NCBI GenBank assembly: GCA_045106415.1
Contig: JBGCEP010000027.1
Coordinates: 89,553 to 153,552, forward strand
Direction of reading: 5' to 3'
Length of the DNA stretch: 64,000 bases
From: Oligoflexales bacterium
GTDB taxonomy: Bacteria > Bdellovibrionota_B > Oligoflexia > Oligoflexales > Bog-1112
A model generated the notes under the pieces. That model ran no database searches. It was not told the DNA's origin and saw nothing but the letters and a program-made list of their open reading frames with translations. Positions 921-24,113 of the stretch are shown here, piece by piece. Every line of letters starts with the position of its first letter. Within the stretch, counting starts at the first letter, position 1. Position numbers and translations under genes: made by a program.

Positions 921-948
921 CACTTCACCTCCTGTCTTTGACACAGCC

Positions 949-975
949 TTATCGGCTCTTTCAAGAAAAAGATAA
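949..975 (-). promoter_or_regulatory. Putative sigma28 (FliA) promoter
   Basis: TTAT-N15-GCCGATAA on the - strand; perfect -10 box. Confidence 0.55.
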
Positions 976-1006
976 AACTTAACAAATAGTGATTAATAAC
1001 AGAGCC

Positions 1007-2299
1007 CTACATAAGGGAGTTTGGATTCAGTAAAGCGTCTCTCATCGCAGCTAAAAACTTAGCTCCACCCTCTCCATCCACTGCTCGATGATCAAACGTC
1101 ACACCCATTTGACAAGTCGGGTGTATAACAATTTGATTATCCACAACTACAGGCTTCTGCGTAATCGTCCCAATACTCAAAATACCAACTTGCGGCTGAT
1201 TCAATATAGGCTGTGAATGTAAGCTTCCAAACATACCCGGGTTTGTCACAGTAAAAGTCCCTCCTTGAGTTTCATGAGACTTGAGCCCACCGTCACGCGC
1301 TCTTTGCGCAAGGTCATTTAATGTCTGCGACATCTCTTCCAGGGTCAATTCATCTGCTTTTTGAATAACGGGAACCACAAGCCCTTGAGGTGTTGCAACC
1401 GCACATCCAAGGCGAATTTCATCGTAATATAAAATATCCGTGCCATCGACAGCCGCATTTAAGTCCTCTCGCTTTTTCAGCGCTACGGCTGCTGCTTTTA
1501 AAAACCAAGCCGTCCACGTCACTTTTATTGGAGATTTCGACCTTTGAATACGAACAGCTTCCAAATCCATCTCAAACGTTGTCGTGACATGAGGAGCAAT
1601 TTTTTCAGAATGCACCATGTGCTCTGCTGTCAAACGGCGCACTCGGCTCATTTCCTCCCGGCGGATCTTGACACCATTTAAATACTCATCCCCATCAATA
1701 CGATCTACTTTTAGCCGCTCGACTTCAGCACGATACAGCTGAGGCCCTCCTGAAGAAGAGTCTTGGAGGTGGAGAAGAATATCATCGCGCACAATACGCC
1801 CTTCTGGGCCACTACCAATGATATCGCTCAGTGCCACTCCCTCGTCTTTCGCCAATCGGCGAGCAAGAGGCGTTGCTCTAACAGGACCTGCATATGAACC
1901 AGGTATTCTTACAGACGATGCAATACGGCCGACATCACGGGAGGAAGGTTCTTTTTTATTCTTCCTCCCGGCACCAGTCGCAGGCTGAGAATGGTGAAGG
2001 TTGGAAGGTTGAGGAGGATGATCATCACTCATAACGTCAGCAATCCACGCCACTGCATCACCCACTTGAATCGTCTGTTCAGGATGGACGTATTGAGCAA
2101 CAAGATACCCACCCTGGGTCGCTGATATCTCTGTATCAACTTTATCGGTCGAGACATCTAAGATAGCCTCTCCTTGCACAACTTTATCACCCACAGATTT
2201 TAACCAACGTGAAACCACTGCTTCTTGAACACCTTCTCCCATTGAAGGAAGGCGAGTTGCTTGCCCTTCTATTTCCATAGTTCTGCCCTCAGTTTTCAC
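1007..2299 (-). CDS. 2-oxoacid dehydrogenase E2 (dihydrolipoamide acyltransferase)
   Basis: One lipoyl domain (STDKVDTEI), E3-binding domain (ATPLARRLAK), catalytic GTFTVTNPG and DHRAVDG motifs. Substrate specificity not determinable. Confidence 0.92.
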   Translation of the reverse strand: MKTEGRTMEIEGQATRLPSMGEGVQEAVVSRWLKSVGDKVVQGEAILDVSTDKVDTEISATQGGYLVAQYVHPEQTIQVGDAVAWIADVMSDDHPPQPSNLHHSQPATGAGRKNKKEPSSRDVGRIASSVRIPGSYAGPVRATPLARRLAKDEGVALSDIIGSGPEGRIVRDDILLHLQDSSSGGPQLYRAEVERLKVDRIDGDEYLNGVKIRREEMSRVRRLTAEHMVHSEKIAPHVTTTFEMDLEAVRIQRSKSPIKVTWTAWFLKAAAVALKKREDLNAAVDGTDILYYDEIRLGCAVATPQGLVVPVIQKADELTLEEMSQTLNDLAQRARDGGLKSHETQGGTFTVTNPGMFGSLHSQPILNQPQVGILSIGTITQKPVVVDNQIVIHPTCQMGVTFDHRAVDGEGGAKFLAAMRDALLNPNSLM

Positions 2300-3666
2300 A
2301 GGTGAATAGCCCCCCCTAAACCAGCATGAGCGGCTTCTTGAATTGTTTCACTCAATGTAGGGTGCGGGTGAATAGCTTGCCCAATCTCTTCGAGTGTTGT
2401 TTCAAGCACTTTTCCTAAAACAAACTCAGAAATCATCTCCGTCGCTTTAGTCCCGACAATATGGACCCCCAAGAGCTCTCCATGTACAGGCTCTGAGAGT
2501 ATTTTAATAAATCCTACAGTCGCTCCATCAATTTTCGCTTTTGCCATGGGTGCAAATGGAAATTGAGTCTTTTTGTACTCAACACCCAACTCTACAAGTT
2601 GTTTCTCAGTTCGTCCTACACTCGCGACCTCAGGATACGTATAAACAGCTGAAGGATTCGTATCGTAGTTGATACATTTCGGTTGATGCCCAGCCATAAC
2701 TTCTACAGCATGCAAGGCCTCTGAAGAAGCTGTATGAGCCAATGCAGGCGTTGCAATGACATCACCAACAGCAAAAACTCCTGAGCAAGTTGTTCTATAA
2801 CTTCGATCGACAGGAATAAATCCTCGCTCGGTATGTACACCTATCTTTTTTAAGTTCAATTCCTCAGTCACTGGTTCCCGCCCTATGGAAACCAAAACCT
2901 TATTGTATTGTGAGGTTTCCCCATCTTTTAATTTCAATTCACAACCGGTGTCATGTTCTCTCACAGCTTCAACTTGAACACCTGTTTTAATTTGGACACC
3001 TTGTTTTTTAAGCTGCCGAACAAGCTCTTTCGCGCATTCTTCATCTTCACTAGGAATCACCTGTTCGCCCATCTCAAGAACATCAACAGCAGAGCCAAAG
3101 CGAGCGAAGATAGAAGCAAACTCTAAACCAACAACACCACCGCCAATCACAGCCATTTTTTCAGGCACATGATCTAAAGACAAAATAGAATCTGACGTTA
3201 AAATATGTTTTCCCGTCGATATTGCAAAGGGTAATTCTCGAACTTTTGAGCCTGTGGCAATTAAAGTCTTCTCAGCCTTTAAAGTCTCTTCCCCAACTTG
3301 GATTGTTTTTGAATCCAAGAAAGAAGCGGCACCTTCAAAGACATCGATTTTATTTTTCTTCATCAAAAAACGAAGGCCTTTTCGCTGTGCATCCACAACA
3401 CCTTGTTTTTTATCCATAATTCTTTGCCAATCATACGCTGGAGTCCCAATATCAAAACCTTCTTTTTCAATATCTTTTAACTTGCTCCACACTCTCGCTG
3501 ATTCAACCAATGCCTTCGTCGGAATGCACCCTACATTTAAGCACGTTCCCCCTAAATGAGCTCTTTTCTCGATTAAAGCGACTTTCATTCCACATTGTGC
3601 AGCTCGAATAGCCCCAACTTCTCCAGCAGGCCCAGCACCAATCACAACCAAATCATATATTTTCAT
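2296..3666 (-). CDS. lpdA: Dihydrolipoyl dehydrogenase (E3)
   Basis: GAGPAG FAD motif, GGTCLNVGCIP redox disulfide, HPHPTLSE. Start moved to ATG 3666 (GGAG RBS). Confidence 0.95.
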   Translation of the reverse strand: MKIYDLVVIGAGPAGEVGAIRAAQCGMKVALIEKRAHLGGTCLNVGCIPTKALVESARVWSKLKDIEKEGFDIGTPAYDWQRIMDKKQGVVDAQRKGLRFLMKKNKIDVFEGAASFLDSKTIQVGEETLKAEKTLIATGSKVRELPFAISTGKHILTSDSILSLDHVPEKMAVIGGGVVGLEFASIFARFGSAVDVLEMGEQVIPSEDEECAKELVRQLKKQGVQIKTGVQVEAVREHDTGCELKLKDGETSQYNKVLVSIGREPVTEELNLKKIGVHTERGFIPVDRSYRTTCSGVFAVGDVIATPALAHTASSEALHAVEVMAGHQPKCINYDTNPSAVYTYPEVASVGRTEKQLVELGVEYKKTQFPFAPMAKAKIDGATVGFIKILSEPVHGELLGVHIVGTKATEMISEFVLGKVLETTLEEIGQAIHPHPTLSETIQEAAHAGLGGAIHL

Positions 3667-3857
3667 CTTTATTCTCCAGCGAGTACAGCATGTGTGCATA
3701 AAGAGGTTACCATCGTCACGCTGATTTAAAAAAGAAAACAACCCTCATTTTCCACATCAGTCTCAAAAAAACCTATCAAAACAAAAACTTAAACAGACAC
3801 TAGCTTTTGAGAAAGCTTTCTCAGAAAGATGAAATATAAACTCATGAGTCACTTTCT

Positions 3858-3884
3858 TGAGTTTTGTTTTCAAAGCTCCGATCC
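3858..3884 (+). promoter_or_regulatory. Putative sigma28 promoter
   Basis: TGAG-N15-TCCGATCC about 30 nt before the likely start. Confidence 0.35.
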
Positions 3885-3914
3885 GTAGATGGAGATATAA
3901 AAGGAGAAAAAAAG

Positions 3915-4946
3915 TTGGCAGGTAAAAGCATCGTACTGCAAACCTCCCAAATGGTCTTTAAAGAAGGGGACCCATCAAACGGTATGTTCTTGGTACGCTC
4001 AGGGGAACTTGAAGTCTACCTTGAAAAGGATGGGAAAACGATCGTTCTAGCTTCAGTCGTAGCTGGTGGGATGATAGGAGAAATGGCTCTTTTCGATCAA
4101 AACCCTCGATCAGCATCTGTGCGAGCAACAACAACCTCTGAAGTCACTCATATTTCAAATGAAGACTTCTCAAAACTCATGAAACAAATTCCTAAGTGGT
4201 TTACATCCTTAATGGGGACTCTTTCAACAAGGCTCCGAGTCACAAACGATCGACTCAAAGCAGTTGAAAACGCTACAGCCAACCCTGCTGATAATAGCTC
4301 TAGCTCCACAAAAGAATTAAGTGAAGAAAAACAAGGGAATAGTCTACAACACGTTTTAAAGATGCTTTATATTTTTAACTTAATTATACATAAAGATGCT
4401 GTAAAGGAAGGGAAACACTGGCAGTTAGAACGACCAACTCTCAGTAAAAATATAGAATTGTTCTTTACTGATCAAATGAGAGAATTTAACAACATTATTT
4501 CAATACTAGAAGAGCACAATTTTTTACAACTCACGACAAATAGCTATAAAGTTGACATCATCGATATTGCCAACAAAGGCATCCTCAACCTCCTTATTGA
4601 ATATATTTCCGATTTTCATAAAGCTGGGGGCGCAGCTCTGAGCTCTGACGGGATTTTGCTTTTAAAATGCTTAGTTTCATATAGTAAAAAAGCAGGGTAT
4701 GAGACCTTCACCGCATCTCTCCAAGAGTTGGCACTTGAAGCTAAATCCATGGGGGTTGAAGACACCCCAGACTGGAAGAGTCAACTTCCTATATTTAAAA
4801 TCATCCACCCAGAGCTCAAACTCACAAAGACATCAGATGGGAAACTTGGTATAAAAAGCACACCAAAAGCCATAGCAGAACTCATGAGTTACCACACAAT
4901 CATGACAAAAACGCTCGAAGATCCAGAACCCAAAAATAACTCCTGA
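3915..4946 (+). CDS. Cyclic-nucleotide-binding (CRP-like) domain protein with long C-terminal region
   Basis: FKEGDPSNGMFLVRSGELEV and GEMALFDQNPRSASVRA cNMP motifs. Likely TTG start at 3915 after AGGAG. Confidence 0.8.
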   Translation: MAGKSIVLQTSQMVFKEGDPSNGMFLVRSGELEVYLEKDGKTIVLASVVAGGMIGEMALFDQNPRSASVRATTTSEVTHISNEDFSKLMKQIPKWFTSLMGTLSTRLRVTNDRLKAVENATANPADNSSSSTKELSEEKQGNSLQHVLKMLYIFNLIIHKDAVKEGKHWQLERPTLSKNIELFFTDQMREFNNIISILEEHNFLQLTTNSYKVDIIDIANKGILNLLIEYISDFHKAGGAALSSDGILLLKCLVSYSKKAGYETFTASLQELALEAKSMGVEDTPDWKSQLPIFKIIHPELKLTKTSDGKLGIKSTPKAIAELMSYHTIMTKTLEDPEPKNNS

Positions 4947-4980
4947 ATTTTAAAGAAAAAAATGAAACTCATCAATTCCA

Positions 4981-5009
4981 TTGACTCTCTGGATTGGTGT
5001 CGTTAGAAT
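4981..5009 (+). promoter_or_regulatory. Sigma70-type promoter of tig
   Basis: TTGACT-N17-TAGAAT. Confidence 0.6.
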
Positions 5010-5063
5010 TCGCCCTCATCCGCATTGTGAGCGGACTTAACGACCATCTCAGCGGAGAGTAAA

Positions 5064-6317
5064 ATGGAAGTCTCAGTTGAAGAACTCAACGAAGTTCAAA
5101 AGAAAATTCAAGTCAAATACCCTGAAAACACTGTTGGTGAATATTTTCAGAGTGCATACTCAAAGATTAGAGGACAAGCACGCATCAAAGGGTTTCGCCC
5201 AGGGAAAGCTCCTCTTTCTATGCTTCGCAACTCTCATGGTGATGCCGCTATTCAACTTGTCATGACCAAGATTCGCGAAGATATATCTACAATTGATTTT
5301 TATCAAAAACAAGATGTTGAGCCTTTCGGAACTCCAGCAATTTACATTGATAAAGACCCAAAAGAGGGTGAGGACTTTGAGTTTCACCTTATTGTTGACG
5401 TACCACCAACTTTCACACTGACAGATTGTGAAAACAAAGAAGTTGAGTGCCCTCAATATGATATTGATCTCGACGTTGAAGTCGACCAAGAGATCTCACG
5501 TAGAGCTCGCAACCAAGCCACACAAACACCAGTCGATGACAAAGAGCAAGGCGCTGAGAAAAATCACGCTGTAAGCCTCACTTGCCGTTTTTTAAATGAC
5601 AAAGGTGACGTCATTAGCGAGCATGATGAGAAAAAACCCCTCGAAGCCATTCTAGACGAGCAGTCTCACTTAGACCCATGGATCGTTGATGGCATTCTGG
5701 GTATGAAAGTTGGTGAAAACAAGACTCTTGACCACGAATATGAAGGCCAAAAGATCCAGCTGGAACTCGGACTTTTAAAAGTTTCGACACTCAATACACC
5801 ACCTATTGATGACGAACTGGCGAAAGATCTAGGTTTTGAAAACCTTAATGAAATGAAAAAAGACATCAAAGCTCGACTCGAAAAAGAACTCGAAAAAAGC
5901 AATGAGTCTCTCAAAAAAGAGTCTATTCGAGCTCATATTTTGAAAGAACACCCATTCCAAGTTCCTCCTTCACTGGTTGACAATATTATCGACCACCGAC
6001 TTTTAAGAATGGGTTATCCAAAAGACCAGCTTCAAAATAAAGAAATCCGTGAGCAACAGCTTACCCCAGCTCAAGAAGAAGCGCGCTTTCACTTCCTTGT
6101 CGCAGAACTTGGAAAAAAGCATAATTTAACACCAACAGAAGAAGCTATCACCGAAGAGCTTACTCGCGCTGTTAAAGAAAACCCACAGCTTCAACAAGGC
6201 AACCAAACAGCTTTGATGCAAAACATTCAGTGGGATCTTCTCAGCAAAGCTATTTTTGACCACTTCGCTTCAACTCTTTCTTTCAAAATAGAAAAAATGG
6301 AACCAGAAGCTCCTTAA
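5064..6317 (+). CDS. tig: Trigger factor
   Basis: Ribosome-binding motif GFRPGKAP, FKBP-like middle (GILGMKVGE), located upstream of clpP-clpX. Confidence 0.93.
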   Translation: MEVSVEELNEVQKKIQVKYPENTVGEYFQSAYSKIRGQARIKGFRPGKAPLSMLRNSHGDAAIQLVMTKIREDISTIDFYQKQDVEPFGTPAIYIDKDPKEGEDFEFHLIVDVPPTFTLTDCENKEVECPQYDIDLDVEVDQEISRRARNQATQTPVDDKEQGAEKNHAVSLTCRFLNDKGDVISEHDEKKPLEAILDEQSHLDPWIVDGILGMKVGENKTLDHEYEGQKIQLELGLLKVSTLNTPPIDDELAKDLGFENLNEMKKDIKARLEKELEKSNESLKKESIRAHILKEHPFQVPPSLVDNIIDHRLLRMGYPKDQLQNKEIREQQLTPAQEEARFHFLVAELGKKHNLTPTEEAITEELTRAVKENPQLQQGNQTALMQNIQWDLLSKAIFDHFASTLSFKIEKMEPEAP

Positions 6318-6334
6318 AACGCTAGAAAAATCTT

Positions 6335-6369
6335 AAGAAGAGCCTCATTTTTTGTTGAGGCTCTTCTTT
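6335..6369 (+). terminator. Intrinsic terminator-like hairpin after tig
   Basis: AAGAAGAGCCTCA / TGAGGCTCTTCTT inverted repeat. Confidence 0.7.
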
Positions 6370-6845
6370 ATGCACCGCCACTTCCAAAGCCCAGAAGACA
6401 CTCTTTATGTATCAAAGCTAAAGACTCAATCTGCCACTTAGAATGATTCTAATAACTTTTTTGAAGGTCTTTTTTCTTATCATTAAAACTGCTTCCTAGA
6501 GCAGACAAAAATTCATAAGATAAAGAAGCCTTTCTGCTCATCTAAGCGCGGACATATCTGATACGAATTCTTTTTAAAGACCGCTGTTTCCTACCAAAAA
6601 ACGCCAAAGTATAATAAATACAAACCTCACAGCCCCTACTTTAAAAATACTTTTAATTTTAAGCACTTAATCAACATCATCAGTGACGGGAATCATTAGA
6701 TTTTTTTAACGCACTGCTGTCAGCCTTACTAAAGTTGCAAAAAACAACAAAACCTCAAAAACAACCTTGCAAACACGAGTCTAACTTAAGAAAAACAGCG
6801 ATCCTTTTGTCTATGACAAAAAAAACTCTCACAAAGACAAGTGAT

Positions 6846-6872
6846 TCAATCTTCTTCGAAAGATTCCGATAA
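6846..6872 (+). promoter_or_regulatory. Putative sigma28 promoter of clpP operon
   Basis: TCAA-N15-TCCGATAA. Confidence 0.5.
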
Positions 6873-6889
6873 GATCAACAGTTTCAGAC

Positions 6890-6920
6890 TTGTACTTGAT
6901 TCATATCTGACATATTGTCA
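6890..6920 (+). promoter_or_regulatory. Putative sigma70 promoter of clpP with a palindrome over the -10 box
   Basis: TTGTAC-N17-TATTGT; TGACA-tat-TGTCA at 6908-6920. Confidence 0.4.
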
Positions 6921-6978
6921 AAGCGTGAGGCAATTTTGGGTTGCCAACCGCGTTCACCCTCCGAAATGAGGCCTGAAA

Positions 6979-7578
6979 ATGTCACTTGTCCCTGTAGTTA
7001 TTGAAAACACCAGTCGCGGCGAACGTTCCTGGGATATTTATTCACGGCTCCTTCGCGACCGTATTATTATGCTCGGAACCCCTGTCCGCGACGACATAGC
7101 AAATGTCATCGTAGCTCAGCTGTTGTATCTAGAGAGTGAAGACCCAGATAAGGATATTCACCTCTACATCAACTCTCCGGGCGGCTCCATTACCGCAGGT
7201 ATGGCTATCTACGATGCCATGCAGCACATCCGTCCTGACGTGAGAACATATTGTATTGGGCAGTGCGCAAGCATGGGTGCTTGGTTACTCGCAGCTGGCG
7301 CTCCTGGCAAAAGATATGCACTCCCTAACTCAAGAGTCATGATTCACCAACCTTTAGGTGGCGCTACTGGTCAGGCAACGGATATTGATATTCAAGCTCA
7401 AGAAATTTTGAATATCAAAAAACGCATGTGTGAGCTTCTTGCAGAACATACAAATCGCGATCCTGCACAAATAGCAGAAGACACAGACCGTGATAATTTT
7501 ATGTCTGCTCAGCAAGCCAAAGAATACGGTCTTGTTGATGAAGTTGTCAGCAAAACGCCACAGGCACCTAAAGATTAA
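6979..7578 (+). CDS. clpP: ATP-dependent Clp protease proteolytic subunit
   Basis: [21 protein letters not shown] (catalytic Ser), MIHQPLGG. Confidence 0.98.
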
Positions 7579-7593
7579 TTAGAGGAGCGCAAC

Positions 7594-8901
7594 ATGGCGA
7601 CAAAAGATAGTGGCCTCAATTGTAACTTTTGCGGCAAAGGCCAAAGAGAAGTTCGCAAACTCATTGCCGGGCCCAATGTTTATATCTGCGATGAGTGCAT
7701 CCAACTTTGTAATGACATCATTGCAGAAGAAGTTGATAAAGAAGAAGTTCTTGAGGGCCCACATAAAGTTCCTAACCCAAAAGACATCACCAAAGTCCTT
7801 GATGATTACATCATCGGTCAGTACAAAGCGAAAAAAACACTCGCCGTCGCTGTCCACAATCATTACAAGCGCATTGATGCCAAGTCGTCAAACCAAGATG
7901 GTGTCGAACTTTCAAAATCAAACATCCTTCTTATTGGCCCAACAGGTAGCGGAAAGACACTTCTCGCACAAACCATGGCCCGTATCCTGAATGTGCCATT
8001 CACAATATCTGATGCCACAAACTTAACCGAAGCTGGTTACGTCGGCGAGGATGTTGAAAACATTATTCTTAACCTCCTTCAAAGCGCTGACTACGACGTC
8101 GACACTGCACAGCGTGGGATTGCCTATATCGACGAAGTCGATAAAATCGCTCGTAAAGGAGAGAACACATCCATCACTCGAGATGTATCGGGTGAAGGTG
8201 TTCAACAAGCGCTTTTAAAAATTGTTGAAGGAACAATAGCAAACGTTCCCCCCAGAGGTGGACGTAAACACCCTCAGCAAGAGTTCTTGCAGGTGGACAC
8301 TACGAATATCTTGTTTATTTGCGGGGGCGCTTTCGCCGGCCTTGAAAACATCATTACGCAGCGCATTGAAGTTGCCACAATGGGTTTTGGAGCTGACATT
8401 TCAAGCCACAAGGCTGAAAACAAAAAAGACCTTCTTCTCAAGGTTCAAACTGAAGACCTTATGAAGTTTGGACTTATTCCTGAGTTTATCGGTCGAGTCC
8501 CAGTCATTTGCGCTCTACAGGAGCTAGATGAAGAAGCCCTCATTCGCATTTTAACAACACCAAAAAATGCAATTGTGAAACAATTCAAAAAACTTTTTGA
8601 ATTTGAAAACGTTGATCTCAAGTTTTCTGATGGAGCTCTCAGAGCCATCGTCAAAGAGGCTATTAATAGAAAAACCGGAGCTCGTGGCCTTAGGGCTATT
8701 CTAGAAGAAGCCATGCTAGACACTATGTATGAATTACCTAGTATGGAGGGCCTTGGCGAGGTCATTATCACTGAAGAAACCATCGACCTGGGCGCAGACC
8801 CTATTATGGTTTATCGCCAAAAAACAGAAGATACCCCTCCAGCAGAAGACGAAGACACTCCCCCAGCACCGACTGGAACCCTTGGCCCTAAGCCCCAGTA
8901 A
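7594..8901 (+). CDS. clpX: ATP-dependent Clp protease ATP-binding subunit
   Basis: N-terminal C4 zinc finger, [19 protein letters not shown] loop, TGARGLR. Confidence 0.98.
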
Positions 8902-19959: not shown

Positions 19960-20127
19960 ATGGCAAAGTCAACAAGAAGAGAAAAAGTAAAATTGGTATC
20001 AACAGCAGGAACAGGGTTCTACTACACCTTGAATAAGCTCAAAGGCCAAGATAAACTTCTACTGAAAAAATACGATCCTAAAGTTCGTAAGCACGTTGAA
20101 TTCAAAGAGGCTCGACTTACAAAGTAA
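19960..20127 (+). CDS. rpmG: 50S ribosomal protein L33 (cysteine-less type)
   Basis: [22 protein letters not shown]...[23 protein letters not shown]. Confidence 0.97.
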
Positions 20128-20160
20128 GCCGTATTTCTTCATAAAAGAATTCTCATACAT

Positions 20161-20201
20161 GAGAGCCTACAAGATTTCGCACTTGTGGGCTTTCTGTGTT
20201 T
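20161..20201 (+). terminator. Intrinsic terminator after rpmG
   Basis: GAGAGCCTACAAG / CTTGTGGGCTTTC stem followed by a T-rich tail. Confidence 0.65.
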
Positions 20202-20278
20202 AAAAACATCTGAGAGCCATCTTGTTATACACATACAGACAAAGAAAGCTCACGAACTTCAACGCATCTGAGGTTTTC

Positions 20279-22660
20279 ATGAAATGGCTGCGCTGCGTCA
20301 TCGTTACGCTTTGTCAAATCACATGCCATTCAGCATATTGCACAAGCGACATCCAACTCCTTCCTCACCAACAGAAGGTCTTCGACTATCTCGAGGAATA
20401 CCCTGAGCTCAAAGGGCTTATTCTTTATCATGCTCTCGGCTCTGGAAAAACAGTCACATCCCTCTACTACGCAAAACACCAATCCAAAAACATTAAAATC
20501 TTAGTTCCCAACTACTTAAAGGCTCAATGGGTCCAAGAAATAAAAAAAATCGGCATCGACCCACAAAAAATTGAAATTTACAGCTACAACAAACCTGGCG
20601 ACACAAGCAACCTTGAAAAAATTGACTTCTCAGAGAGCCTGGTCATTATTGATGAAATTCAAAAACTTGTTGAGCGTGTTCGCTATTCATCAAATCCCTC
20701 AGATTTAAAGGTGTACTGGAATCTAGGGAAGTCAAAAAAAATACTTCTCCTCACTGGAACCCCTATCTTCAATGACGCAGCAGATATTGGCTACATAGGG
20801 AATCTTATTAAGGGCGGCTCTTTTTTTCCTTTTCATCCTGATGAGTTCAAAAGAAAGTATATGGAAATCAATCTTGCTCCATCACTTTTCAGAGGTCACC
20901 TCACAGAAAGCAAACTCTTCTCTATTGGCCTCCCTATTTATGGCAGCCTTCTAGCAACATCACTCAGTTCCATCGCTGGGACCAGCTTTGCTGTACCAGC
21001 AATTGCTATGCTAAGCAGCTCCGCTTTAAACGTCACAAATCAACAGTTTCCAATTCAACAAGTTCACTTTCGAAGATTCAACGCTTCTCGATTTTCAGGC
21101 TTTGCAAATCGCTATATCTCTTTTTATGAAACAGCCCACAACGACCTATCCGACTACCCAAGCAAGACTATCCACAAACGCGAAGTTGAATACACAGCAG
21201 CACAAGTTGATTTTTACATGGACTTCATAGACGGGGTTCTCCCACACGACAGACTTGAAAGAATCGTCCACGACGAAACTCGGTCATACACAAAAGCAGA
21301 ACTCAGAGTTCGCAGCGCACAGATTCAGCAAAACATACTCAAGCGTCACGACGCAGGTCGCGAAATTGGAAACCTGAGTCTAACAGGCCCAAAAGGGTTC
21401 GAGGTTTCAAAAAAGTTTATCGAAGTAGAAAAAATCATTTCTTCTAAACCTGGCCAAGTTGCTATTTATTCCTCCTATTACCACAACGGCCTTGTGCTTT
21501 TTGCAGATTTCCTAAAATCTAAGGGACACTCATTTGACGTCCTTCATTCGGACGACACACCTGAAAAAATGAAAGCAATCCTTGACCGATTTCATACAGA
21601 AACAAACCGAATTCTGTTGATCCACCCAGATATCACAGAGGGGATATCACTCAAAGGTGTCGAACAGTTCCATTTACTTGAACCAGTAAAAAACCTTGCC
21701 CTAGAGAAACAAATCATAGGAAGAAGCGTAAGATACCTTTCTCATCAACATCTCCCAAAAGAGCGTCGACACGTCGACATTTACGTTTGGTGCTCAACCG
21801 TGACATACGAGCGATTTTTCTTATTTCCCACAGACGCTGGCATTGTCCGTAGAGACCACTGGCTCAAACGATTTCAGGAAGTAAACCCTAATCTATGGAG
21901 CACAGGAATCGCTCAATTGGATTTAAAGTACTTTGAAAAAGACTACACTCCCGACCATCATGTCGAAAAAAACAAACTCCGCATAGCCACCGACATGCAA
22001 GCTTTCCAACAAGCTTGCCGCACATCCTCCCTTGAACACGGGGTGCAAACCCCAGAAAACTTCCTCGCCCACAAAAAAGACACCTCCACCCCCCTTTATC
22101 AGAGGCCACTTGTCTCCTTTGAGCTGGGCCTTTATCCTCTTTCCTACGAACTCACTGACACAAAAACAAAAGAAAAGCGTTTTGAGTTCACACAAAGAAG
22201 CGACCTTGGCTTCATCAACGAACTCCCCTACTCCTCACATATCAACGTCGGCTTTGGAATGAGGTTTAGCTCGGGCATGAGCACACCCTACATCAACAAC
22301 AAAAAAGCCAACAACCTTACAGAAGCTCTAGCCGACATCAGCATCTCTTTAATGAACCGCTTTCACGTCGAACCTTTTTCAGAGGAAACGTCGTCTTTTT
22401 TCTGGAAACAAGAATATGGCATGAGTGTCTTTTGGGCTTCTCCTTTTTACGGCTTAAGCCCTAGTTTTCGACAATCTATAGGCTGGGATCAAAGACTTCT
22501 CTCTCACCTTAGTATCTCAGCAGAATTGGGGGCTGAGGCACGAGCTTTCTTCAGAACAACGACTGTTAAAGACGTCACAGACCTGGAGCCTAAAAACTAC
22601 AACACGATGAAAAGCTTCCAACCTTTCATCGTGCTGAGCATGACATCTACCTACTTTTAA
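20279..22660 (+). CDS. SF2 helicase (NCLDV D6/D11-like motifs) with putative signal peptide and C-terminal beta-barrel-like domain
   Basis: [64 protein letters not shown] before ATG 20279. Ends ...[11 protein letters not shown]. Confidence 0.85.
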
Positions 22661-24042
22661 GGATGAATCATATCCTCTGCTCGCACGTACTTGTCATAAT
22701 CTTCAGCTGAAAGAAGCCCCGTTTTCACAGCCGCTTCCTTTAAAGTTAATCCTTCTTTATACGCTGTCTTTGCAATCACAGCAGCATGATCATAGCCGAT
22801 TACAGGATTTAACGCGGTAACAAGCATCAATGAACGGTTCAAATTTTCACTGATACGCTCTTTATTCGCCTCTAATCCTTCAACACAGTTCTCAGAAAAG
22901 CTTTGCGCCGCATCTGCAAGAAGACTCGCAGACTCTAAAAAATTATGAATCATGACTGGCTTAAACACGTTCAACTCAAAATGACCTTGACTCCCTGCAA
23001 TTCCGACCGCTGCATCTTGCCCCATCACATGAACCGCTACCATAGTTAGAGCCTCACACTGCGTTGGATTCACTTTACCTGGCATAATTGAACTACCGGG
23101 CTCATTTGCCGGCAGAATCAATTCTGCCAACCCACTTCTTGGCCCACTACCAAGCATACGCACATCATGAGCTATTTTCATCAGAACAACTGCAACTCTT
23201 CTCAAGGCACTACTTGCACTCACAACAGCATCATGCCCTGCAAGAGCAGCAAACTTATTAGGCGCAGTCACAAAAGGCTTCCCTGTCAAAGCAGCCAAAT
23301 GTCCCGCAACTCTTTCCCCGTATTCTGGATGAGAGTTTAAACCCGTCCCAACTGCCGTCCCCCCTAAGGCGATTTCATAAAGACCATCACGACTGCGCTT
23401 TACTTCTTCACACGCCTGCAGCAATTGATGGTGATAACCAGAGAACTCTTGCGCCAACGTTAAAGGGGTTGCATCCATCAAATGTGTTCGACCAATTTTC
23501 ACAATGCCATCAAACCTATACATACAGCCTTTAAGGCTTTTTAGTAACAGGTTCAATTTTGGGATTAACTCTTCATCAATACAATCAATCGCCGCCACAT
23601 GCATAAACGACGGGAAAGTATCATTGGAGGATTGGGATTTGTTAACATCATCGTTCGGATGAACAGGATATTTCGAACCCATTTCACCACCTGAGATTTC
23701 AATTGCTCGGTTTGAAATCACTTCATTACCATTCATATTTGTTTGAGTTCCAGACCCAGTCTGCCACACAACTAAAGGAAAATGATCATCTAAACGCCCT
23801 GCTATCACTTCATCACAAGCTTGAGAAATCAAAGATTTCTTGTCTTCAGAAAGCTTACCTAGGTCAAAATTCGTAAGCGCAGCAGCCTTTTTCACAAGCC
23901 CAATCGCGCGAATAAAAACACTAGGGAAACGGTGTCCACCAATCTTAAAGTTTCCTAAAGACCTTTGTGTTTGCGCTCCCCAATAACGATCGGAAGGAAC
24001 TTGGATTTCACCCATACTATCTATTTCTGTGCGCTCTGACAT
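22657..24042 (-). CDS. fumC: Class II fumarate hydratase
   Basis: [34 protein letters not shown] signature. Confidence 0.98.
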
Positions 24043-24113
24043 CTGACACCTCAATAAAAAAATCTCACAGCAAGATAATATATGAAAATTCTTAGCTTTT
24101 CGACATTTTCACT

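Follow-up and report, generated by a model that had tools for sequence, protein, structure and literature searches.

Can an ATP-driven nucleic-acid motor be stationed outside the bacterial cytoplasm? The question is raised by a single open reading frame (ORF), 20279..22660 on the forward strand of a 64,000-nucleotide stretch of DNA (the window) from an Oligoflexales bacterium (contig JBGCEP010000027.1 of assembly GCA_045106415.1). Its product, P0001 (793 amino acids (aa) plus a stop codon, read from the sequence), is best read as a Sec-type signal followed by a complete NPH-I/D6-D11-like SNF2 ATPase with an inserted helical hairpin, and then by an 8-stranded OmpA/NspA-like barrel. In the same reading, an exported SNF2 ATPase and a small outer-membrane barrel protein make up a conserved module of two genes, and P0001 is its fused version. 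An earlier note on the window, made from the sequence and its translations, had proposed an exported helicase carrying a C-terminal barrel and had likened it to an autotransporter. The parts that it named are all found, but the likeness to autotransporters did not survive.

The ATPase and its export signal

Two RecA-like lobes and intact motifs I, Ia, II, III, V and VI identify P0001 as a superfamily 2 (SF2), SNF2-type ATPase. Every motif quoted in the earlier note is present in the translation: LLPHQ at residues 27-31, YHALGSGKT at 50-58 (with GSGKT at 54-58), DEIQ at 125-128, TGTPIFN at 159-165, and two further stretches at 453-469 (motif V, TEGISL, at 453-458) and 478-503 (motif VI at 478-489). 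Pfam scores lie above the cut-offs for both SNF2-rel_dom (32 bits vs. 24.9) and Helicase_C (39.3 bits vs. 23.5), and ResIII is matched as well. The complete two-lobe SF2 ATPase of the D6/D11 kind that had been claimed is therefore there, and its closest counterparts of known structure are viral: the only PDB sequence matches below E 1e-3 are vaccinia NPH-I (6rfl_Y, 2e-9) and VETF-S (7amv_W, 3.1e-5). An AlphaFold2 model built on 20 relatives (predicted local distance difference test (pLDDT) 83, predicted template modelling score (pTM) 0.73) contains both RecA-like lobes. When this model was searched with Foldseek, NPH-I chains took ranks 1-4 (E about 3e-17), followed by CSB, Mot1, Chd1 and RapA. 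Look-alikes in the ESM Atlas are viral SNF2 clusters, which we take as a lead only.

Residues that matter for catalysis have been kept. Across 20 relatives (31-46% identity), G54, G56, K57 and T58, D125 and E126, T161 and P162, motif V residues T453, E454, G455, S457 and L458, and motif VI residues Q478, R482 and R485 are invariant. Such constancy points to selection for catalysis and thus to a working ATPase, and the sequences argue that P0001 is catalytically competent.

P0001 is related to the NPH-I/D6-D11 group but falls outside the NPH-I family proper. PF08469, the C-terminal domain of NPH-I, has no match in P0001 at E ≤ 1, and the model places a β-barrel where NPH-I has that domain. In the wide sense, P0001 falls among the D6-D11 helicases of poxviruses and nucleocytoplasmic large DNA viruses (NCLDV), with NPH-I as its best PDB and Foldseek match and viral relatives on giant-virus contigs; this placement draws on PDB, Foldseek and contig evidence rather than on a rooted tree that includes cellular SNF2 families. 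Vaccinia NPH-I (D11) and the VETF small subunit (D6) share with P0001 the two-lobe SNF2-like ATPase and the YHxLGSGKT and QIIGRxxRxxSH motifs, but they have no signal peptide, barrel or hairpin insertion. Both are partners of the viral RNA polymerase, in virions and in viral factories.

Outside the bacterial clade, helicases of giant-virus type are the nearest relatives. Viral-contig relatives of the family lie mostly on contigs of giant-virus metagenome-assembled genomes (GVMAG; best E 7e-26), and one metagenomic helicase, P0149, is 78% identical to a GVMAG contig. A search of viral contigs with P0112 found no related locus. Bacterial SNF2 and defence helicases share the generic SNF2 core with P0001 (RapA in Foldseek; partial matches to DpdE, DrmD and PbeA), but these enzymes are cytoplasmic, unlike the location predicted for P0001. 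Assignment to a Dpd, DISARM or Pbe defence system was considered and rejected, since every match fell far short of the family cut-offs: DpdE scored 40.9 bits vs. a cut-off of 500, and the PbeA match (7.3e-9) covered 84 residues only. No partner genes of these systems were seen at the P0001 locus or at the loci of its relatives, and PADLOC and PHROGs returned generic helicase matches only.

The family is large. A word-indexed search returned 76 relatives of P0001 and an exhaustive search 6451 at E ≤ 1e-3, of which 170 reached E ≤ 1e-30. Long forms (~790-810 aa) carry a C-terminal extension, and short forms (~600 aa) end at a conserved S-I-E motif. Searching for homologues with the same three-part architecture yielded eight further long forms, 42-46% identical to P0001 over 97-100% of its length. 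One of the eight is a paralogue, P0004 (locus L009; 46% identity), on another contig of the same genome.

Unlike their viral kin, the bacterial proteins begin with what looks like an export signal. We defined the bacterial clade as 100 sequences (P0001-P0061, P0078-P0108 and eight later ones that best match bacterial loci); in a quickly searched tree that included eight rows without a signal, it came out as monophyletic, with support of 99 in the SH-like approximate likelihood ratio test (SH-aLRT). The N-terminus is missing in 13 of the 100. Among the remaining 87, a signal-like stretch stands directly before LLPHQ in 82 and is absent from 5. Of these stretches, 41 resemble signal peptidase I (SPI) substrates in having small residues at -3 and -1. 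Another 29 have a lipobox-like Cys, in many cases with a long polar linker after it, and the other 12 show only a hydrophobic (h-) region. The 117 distant relatives include 8 without an N-terminus, 106 without a signal-like stretch and 3 with one; the N-termini of these distant proteins are rich in lysine. The signal, found in 82/87 bacterial vs. 3/109 distant relatives, is therefore a trait of the bacterial clade. None of the giant-virus-type helicases has a barrel.

In P0001 itself, the n-region MKWLR is followed by a 10-residue h-region and a c-region, CHSAYC, with small residues at -3 and -1. By our own heuristic this provisionally qualifies as a Sec (SPI) signal, in agreement with the signal-peptide-like N-terminus that had been described, whereas the absence of an acceptable lipobox speaks against a lipoprotein (signal peptidase II, SPII) signal. 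Among the lipobox forms that we read, the residue after the Cys is mostly Ser, Ala or Thr. In E. coli, these residues after the lipoprotein Cys direct the protein to the outer membrane.

The barrel, fused and split

The C-terminal domain was modelled from residues 590-793 alone, using an alignment of eight long relatives. In this model (pLDDT 83.7) the last ~185 residues form eight long antiparallel strands. VIA-align against 48,161 chains matched it to a designed transmembrane barrel (Z = 14.7), OprF-N (14.2), OmpA (14.0), NspA (13.6), PagL (13.3) and OmpW (11.9), and OpcA, OmpA, OprG and OmpW were the best Foldseek matches. Several of the strands alternate in hydrophobicity, and STYF are the last four residues of the chain. 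By its modelled structure, the domain is a closed 8-stranded outer-membrane-type barrel of the OmpA/NspA class, as the earlier note had expected, along with the terminal aromatic residue. OmpA/OprF-N, NspA, PagL and OmpW (Z = 11.9-14.2) resemble P0001 in both fold and terminal aromatic residue. In OmpA, however, the barrel comes first and a periplasmic domain second; P0001 would reverse this order, and its predicted periplasmic domain is an ATPase.

The order of signal, passenger and C-terminal outer-membrane barrel is that of type Va autotransporters such as EspP, Hbp and EstA. P0001 could then be an effector that its barrel carries across the outer membrane, displayed on the surface or released to work in host or prey. 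Hbp and EspP do appear among the weaker Foldseek matches (ranks 8, 26 and 33; TM score 0.34-0.35), several signs of host association (TLC-type ATP/ADP translocases, a WRKY19-type protein and a kinase beside the paralogue; all described below) would suit such an effector, and three secretins in the genome make secretion of unfused forms after Sec conceivable. However, type Va autotransporters have a 12-stranded pore with a helix plugging it. The barrel of P0001 has 8 strands in ~185 aa, too few for a passenger channel, its best matches are themselves 8-stranded, the plug helix is absent from the models, and Pfam Autotransporter is not matched. A barrel that is a separate gene with its own signal, as in 21 of 28 loci (below), could not act as an autotransporter in cis at all, and the lipobox forms point to a membrane tether. 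We therefore rejected the type Va assignment, and with it the autotransporter likeness of the earlier note; a surface-displayed or released effector is unlikely. An 8-stranded, often separately encoded barrel, taken together with the lipobox forms, suggests a tether and not a translocation pore, which makes it more likely that the helicase lies in the periplasm.

The gene neighbourhoods carry much of the argument for a module. We collected 37 loci, six of which had been fetched twice, leaving 31 distinct helicase loci. Three (L007, L012 and L032) are cut by a contig end, and 28 are informative. Helicase and barrel are fused in 7 of the 31 (L001, L009, L010, L018, L019, L026 and L027). In another 21, the helicase gene is adjacent to a gene for a protein of 164-422 aa with its own signal-like N-terminus and an outer-membrane-like C-terminus (..KTTYL, ..TTFF, ..KIAY, ..SFVF etc.). 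This neighbour lies divergently upstream at 15 loci (L011, L013, L014, L015, L022-L025, L028-L031, L034, L035 and L037) and downstream on the same strand at 6 (L016, L017, L020, L021, L033 and L036). Each of the 28 informative loci is thus accounted for, 7 by fusion and 21 by adjacency.

The neighbours are, for the most part, demonstrably related to the fused domain. That domain aligned with eight stand-alone neighbours over 184 columns (hhalign 98.1%, E 7e-14), and local hhalign and hidden Markov model (HMM) comparisons joined 18 of the 21 neighbours to the barrel family, along with a second fused type (L018, L019, L026 and L027). The downstream neighbours at L016 and L017 match this second type at 99.3%. 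Short of a secure tie are the neighbours at L021 and L036, with short stretches at 60.6% and 83.7%, and that at L025, which gave no match. Pfam returned no outer-membrane family for the fused domain or the 21 neighbour proteins, only a weak DUF2715 match in 2 neighbours. When the stand-alone barrels were used as a profile, the search yielded no more than 7 proteins, all unannotated. At L027, the fused-type gene is present as two overlapping ORFs (5929-6891 and 6711-8456), which reflects either a frameshift or a sequencing error of that assembly.

On the helicase tree (quick search, SH-aLRT only), fused forms occupy three separate places, each beside split forms, so fusion or fission must have happened repeatedly. 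This is a classic Rosetta-stone signal, drawn from gene sequences, that the helicase and the barrel protein would work together. Because the stand-alone barrel has an export signal of its own, it should meet its partner outside the cytoplasm. A complex prediction for the mature short-form helicase of L003 with its neighbour barrel, both given as alignments, scored 0.06 vs. a mark of 0.32.

The paralogue locus L009 (contig C70 of the window's genome, G000) is of interest in its own right. Next to the paralogue gene (938-3319) are genes at 3384-5171, 5636-6682 and 6804-8420. They encode a lipobox-bearing protein of 595 aa and no known family, a Ser/Thr kinase of eukaryote-like type whose N-terminal region is hydrophobic (Pkinase, E 2e-40), and a 538-aa protein with a GHSLGG lipase-like motif.

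Where the motor would work, and on what fuel

Between the lobes, the P0001 model has helices at 212-233 and 238-256, and residues 213-256 include no charged residue. The Kyte-Doolittle maximum of this hairpin over 19 residues is 1.51 in P0001; of 85 bacterial relatives (median 1.99), 76 reach 1.6 or more. Giant-virus metagenome helicases such as P0149 also carry a hydrophobic insertion at this lobe 1-lobe 2 site. In the signal-less, virus-like relatives, however, it is longer and contains one very hydrophobic segment, whereas the bacterial insertion is a compact hairpin of ~45 residues; P0064 and P0065, the latter with NPHI_C, have none. Since virus-like relatives share the insertion, a membrane-associated helicase seems to be ancestral to the branch that joins them to P0001. 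In the bacterial proteins, the hairpin may partner with the inner membrane, the outer membrane, the barrel or the protein's own core.

Two observations on these insertions stand apart. Many of the signal-less, virus-like relatives P0109-P0217 contain an internal segment of very high hydrophobicity (19-residue Kyte-Doolittle values up to 2.9), and many have a Cys within the last few residues; they may form a class of membrane-anchored, possibly lipidated giant-virus helicases. P0084 (1452 aa) consists of two helicase units in tandem, each with a hydrophobic insertion, and has no signal peptide.

The hairpin could also be taken to hold P0001 at the inner membrane as a cytoplasmic helicase, with an uncleaved N-terminal anchor and a C-terminus that forms no barrel in vivo. 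Helicases need ATP and nucleic acid, as any textbook states; the shared insertion suggests that a membrane form on the cytoplasmic side was probably ancestral, and the signal of P0001 is atypical. The topology does not favour this arrangement, since Lys and Arg before the h-region predict an N-in/C-out orientation, and an N-in anchor followed by a two-helix hairpin would put both lobes outside. Nor would it account for the lipobox-like Cys and long linkers in 29/87 relatives, for a partner barrel that is separately encoded with its own signal peptide, or for a barrel fold that is confidently of outer-membrane type and ends in an aromatic residue. An inner-membrane helicase facing the cytoplasm is thus distinctly unlikely.

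If P0001 is periplasmic, its fuel has to be explained, and the genomes that carry the family offer a candidate source. A scan of 185,579 species representatives found 28 helicase loci in 25 metagenome-assembled genomes, which their depositors labelled Oligoflexales, Oligoflexia, Bdellovibrionia, Pseudobdellovibrionaceae, Myxococcales, Rickettsiales/Rickettsiaceae, and Gamma- and Zetaproteobacteria; one carrier is a complete chromosome of 1.52 Mb. In G000, TLC is encoded by three genes, all full-length (E 5.9e-192, 7.8e-148 and 4.5e-144). Strong TLC matches were present in 15/15 other genomes of its family, vs. no match better than 7.3e-9 in 25 genomes from 15 other families of the order and none in 14 controls. 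This looks like a whole family of energy parasites within an order of Bdellovibrionota. At a threshold of E ≤ 1e-20, TLC was present in 20 of 26 distinct helicase-bearing genomes (8/8 of the relatives set and 12/18 further ones; G050 gave the same places as G001, and the two were counted once).

Bacteria with TLC import host ATP, and the transporter is a hallmark of intracellular energy parasites. In such bacteria, ATP must pass through the periplasm, and the objection to a periplasmic ATPase is weakened accordingly. The premise of the earlier note, that the periplasm lacks ATP, thus stands as a general textbook rule but loses force for this organism, with its three TLC genes. TLC also makes it probable that the organism lives in or on a eukaryotic cell and has hosts in common with giant viruses, and common hosts would offer a route by which genes could be transferred. 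Host association is further hinted at by the WRKY19-type protein encoded in the window, the eukaryote-like kinase by the paralogue, and the label 'plant metagenome' borne by the sequencing runs that hold the sequence.

A periplasm generally held to be free of ATP would, conversely, suit an exported protein that keeps the helicase fold as a non-hydrolysing scaffold or binding protein. TLC was not seen in 6/26 carrier genomes, and the fused clade has DEIQ or DEVQ at motif II vs. DEVH in the short forms, a difference that counts against a working motor. However, active SF2 enzymes, Mfd among them, can also have Gln as the fourth residue of motif II. Moreover, the Walker A Lys, the Asp-Glu of motif II, motifs III and V, and both Arg residues of motif VI are invariant in the 20 sequences compared above, and a catalytically idle scaffold is highly unlikely.

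Returning to an exported, active and tethered motor, we propose the following sequence of events. Sec would export the P0001 chain, and the signal peptide would be cut. The β-barrel assembly machinery (BAM) would then insert the barrel with both ends on the periplasmic side, as in OmpA-class barrels, so that the motor would hang from the periplasmic face of the outer membrane. Relatives with a lipobox would reach the same place via a lipid anchor. Host or prey ATP, leaking or drawn into the periplasm, would fuel the motor, which would move along nucleic acid that reaches the envelope or strip proteins off it, perhaps so that DNA or RNA of host or prey can be taken up or scavenged. A nucleic-acid substrate is proposed because this is the habit of the family: duplex nucleic acid is the track on which SNF2 enzymes translocate and from which they strip proteins.

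DNA-uptake machinery offers a functional analogy only, in that the ComEA ratchet and the ComFA helicase also serve an inward pull at the envelope. ComEA uses no ATP and ComFA is cytoplasmic, and neither homology nor gene linkage of the P0001 module to ComEA or ComFA was seen here. G000 does have a ComEC-like gene and the three secretins, all of them common genes; Endonuclease_NS was not found in this genome, which is 93.8% complete.

How firmly these steps can be held differs from one to the next. From sequence and models, export of P0001 and its tethering to the outer membrane are probable. That the protein, in addition, points into the periplasm and burns ATP from host or prey is an evenly balanced proposition, and a role in nucleic-acid uptake or scavenging is a tentative suggestion that is more easily doubted than believed. 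We infer export, orientation, ATP source and substrate alike.

Several points weigh against the proposal. All statements about location rest on sequence and predicted structure. The signal classes come from a simple script of our own (uncharged hydrophobic stretch, small residues at -3 and -1, lipobox Cys), some lipobox calls are ambiguous, and the h-region of P0001 is unusual in containing four Cys and a Gln. The main difficulty is the hairpin: as hydrophobic as a transmembrane segment, it should tend to lodge in the inner membrane while Sec exports the chain, and Lol sorting of the lipoprotein forms is hard to reconcile with it. The presence of ATP in the periplasm of TLC-bearing bacteria is something that we infer, and the link between TLC and the helicase is loose. 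Two of the 20 positives (G041 and G051) have weaker matches only, about 1e-25; TLC was not found in G046 and G055-G059, genomes that may be incomplete; and, with this query, the helicase was not found in 8/16 family genomes that have TLC. Since related genomes are not independent, the association is suggestive. Finally, the route by which nucleic acid would reach the motor is postulated only: an 8-stranded barrel has no pore, and no nuclease, pilus or DNA-channel gene is conserved beside the module across the loci.

The locus, its assembly and the meaning of the module

Coordinates of the features are collected in Table 1. The ORF follows a GAGG ribosome-binding site as the earlier note had it, with the ATG 5 nt further on. 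An alternative start, the in-frame TTG at 20222, would lengthen the protein by 19 residues, with the hydrophobic segment still N-terminal. The P0001 gene has no operon partner at its locus. Genes for Lon, an aldehyde dehydrogenase, Der and RNase III are close by, and from its place amid housekeeping genes we take it to be a chromosomal bacterial gene.

Table 1. Features of the P0001 gene and its neighbours in window coordinates, and the translocase genes of the same genome (G000) in contig coordinates.
Feature	Position	Strand	Basis
GAGG ribosome-binding site	20270..20273	+	read directly
Whole ORF, 793 aa + stop (P0001)	20279..22660	+	ORF translation
Signal-peptide-like segment, aa 1-21	20279..20341	+	heuristic SPI-like class; position conserved across family
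RecA-like lobe 1, SNF2 ATPase, aa ~24-200 (motifs I, Ia, II, III)	20348..20878	+	Pfam, alignment, model
Uncharged helical hairpin, aa 212-256	20912..21046	+	model, hydropathy
RecA-like lobe 2 (Helicase_C, aa 379-486; motifs V, VI)	21413..21736	+	Pfam, alignment, model
Conserved helical C-terminal part of helicase module, aa ~487-590	21737..22048	+	ends at SLE/SIE, where short forms stop; alignment, model
Flexible linker, aa 591-604	22049..22090	+	pLDDT below 50
Predicted 8-stranded outer-membrane β-barrel domain, aa 611-793, ending STYF	22109..22657	+	model, structure matches, homology to stand-alone neighbours
Methyl-accepting chemotaxis protein, upstream divergent neighbour, outside module	17907..19622	-	gene context
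Class II fumarase, downstream convergent neighbour, outside module, 4-nt overlap with ORF	22657..24054	-	gene context
TLC/NTT ATP/ADP translocases of G000 (L118-L120)	C83:9695-11140; C10:71538-73013; C10:35617-37059		

A fusion seen in a metagenome bin, as the window assembly is, might have arisen by misassembly or frameshift. In run X2, the sequence is covered by fragments of 151-251 nt only, none of which crosses the whole linker and junction region, and this leaves some room for an artefact. In contrast, one contig of run X1 spans 20000-23000 without a gap, although X1 may be the window's own source. The eight other full-length fused forms come from several sources and include the paralogue, which lies on a different contig of the same genome, and two further fused subfamilies exist. 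The artefact reading is close to refuted, and the fusion that had been reported is real. No RNA run is among the sequencing runs found to hold the sequence. Summed contig depth rises about five-fold over 22929-23000 in both runs; within that interval, 22957-22989, inside the fumarase gene, is matched by a second, unrelated contig, probably through a conserved stretch common to other organisms.

Elsewhere in the window, 13417-14226 on the reverse strand encodes a protein of 269 aa in which a hydrophobic N-terminal segment is combined with three zinc fingers of the WRKY19 type (PF24906, E 2.2e-19), a domain known from eukaryotes. This protein may be a host-mimicking factor. Its gene is flanked by two forward-strand genes, 12661-13389 and 14756-15457, whose products have signal-like N-termini and no Pfam family.

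As for precedent, a literature search found no exported, secreted, periplasmic, extracellular or surface-exposed helicase and no module of this kind. A Bdellovibrio helicase, Bd1370, is up-regulated during predation, with export not stated in the portion of the article consulted (PMC2797640). Neither the barrel nor the module belongs to a Pfam, NCBIfam, PADLOC or PHROG family, and the statement of the earlier note that it knew of no described system with this architecture agrees with the literature and family searches made here. As judged from sequence and models, the parts are of known kinds; it is their combination, and the compartment, that would be new.

It is possible, if on balance doubtful, that the full history runs as follows: a family of bacteria living on nucleotides of host or prey acquired a membrane-associated SNF2 helicase of giant-virus type, which was given a Sec or lipoprotein signal and, by gene fusion or fission, coupled at least three times to a small outer-membrane barrel. 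It would then be the first ATP-driven nucleic-acid motor outside the cytoplasm, working in a periplasm supplied with host ATP and reeling in or remodelling foreign nucleic acid at the outer membrane. The textbook place of helicases and other ATP-driven motors is the cytoplasm, because the periplasm has no ATP. A module of about 100 proteins from uncultured Bdellovibrionota-like and other small-genome bacteria challenges this rule, and it suggests that the place where the rule may fail is a bacterium whose envelope lets in ATP imported from a host. Gene flow between giant viruses and bacteria, which probably have eukaryotic hosts in common, is also on record in the module. Should the motor indeed handle nucleic acid at the envelope, foreign DNA or RNA would be taken up or processed in a manner that is new.

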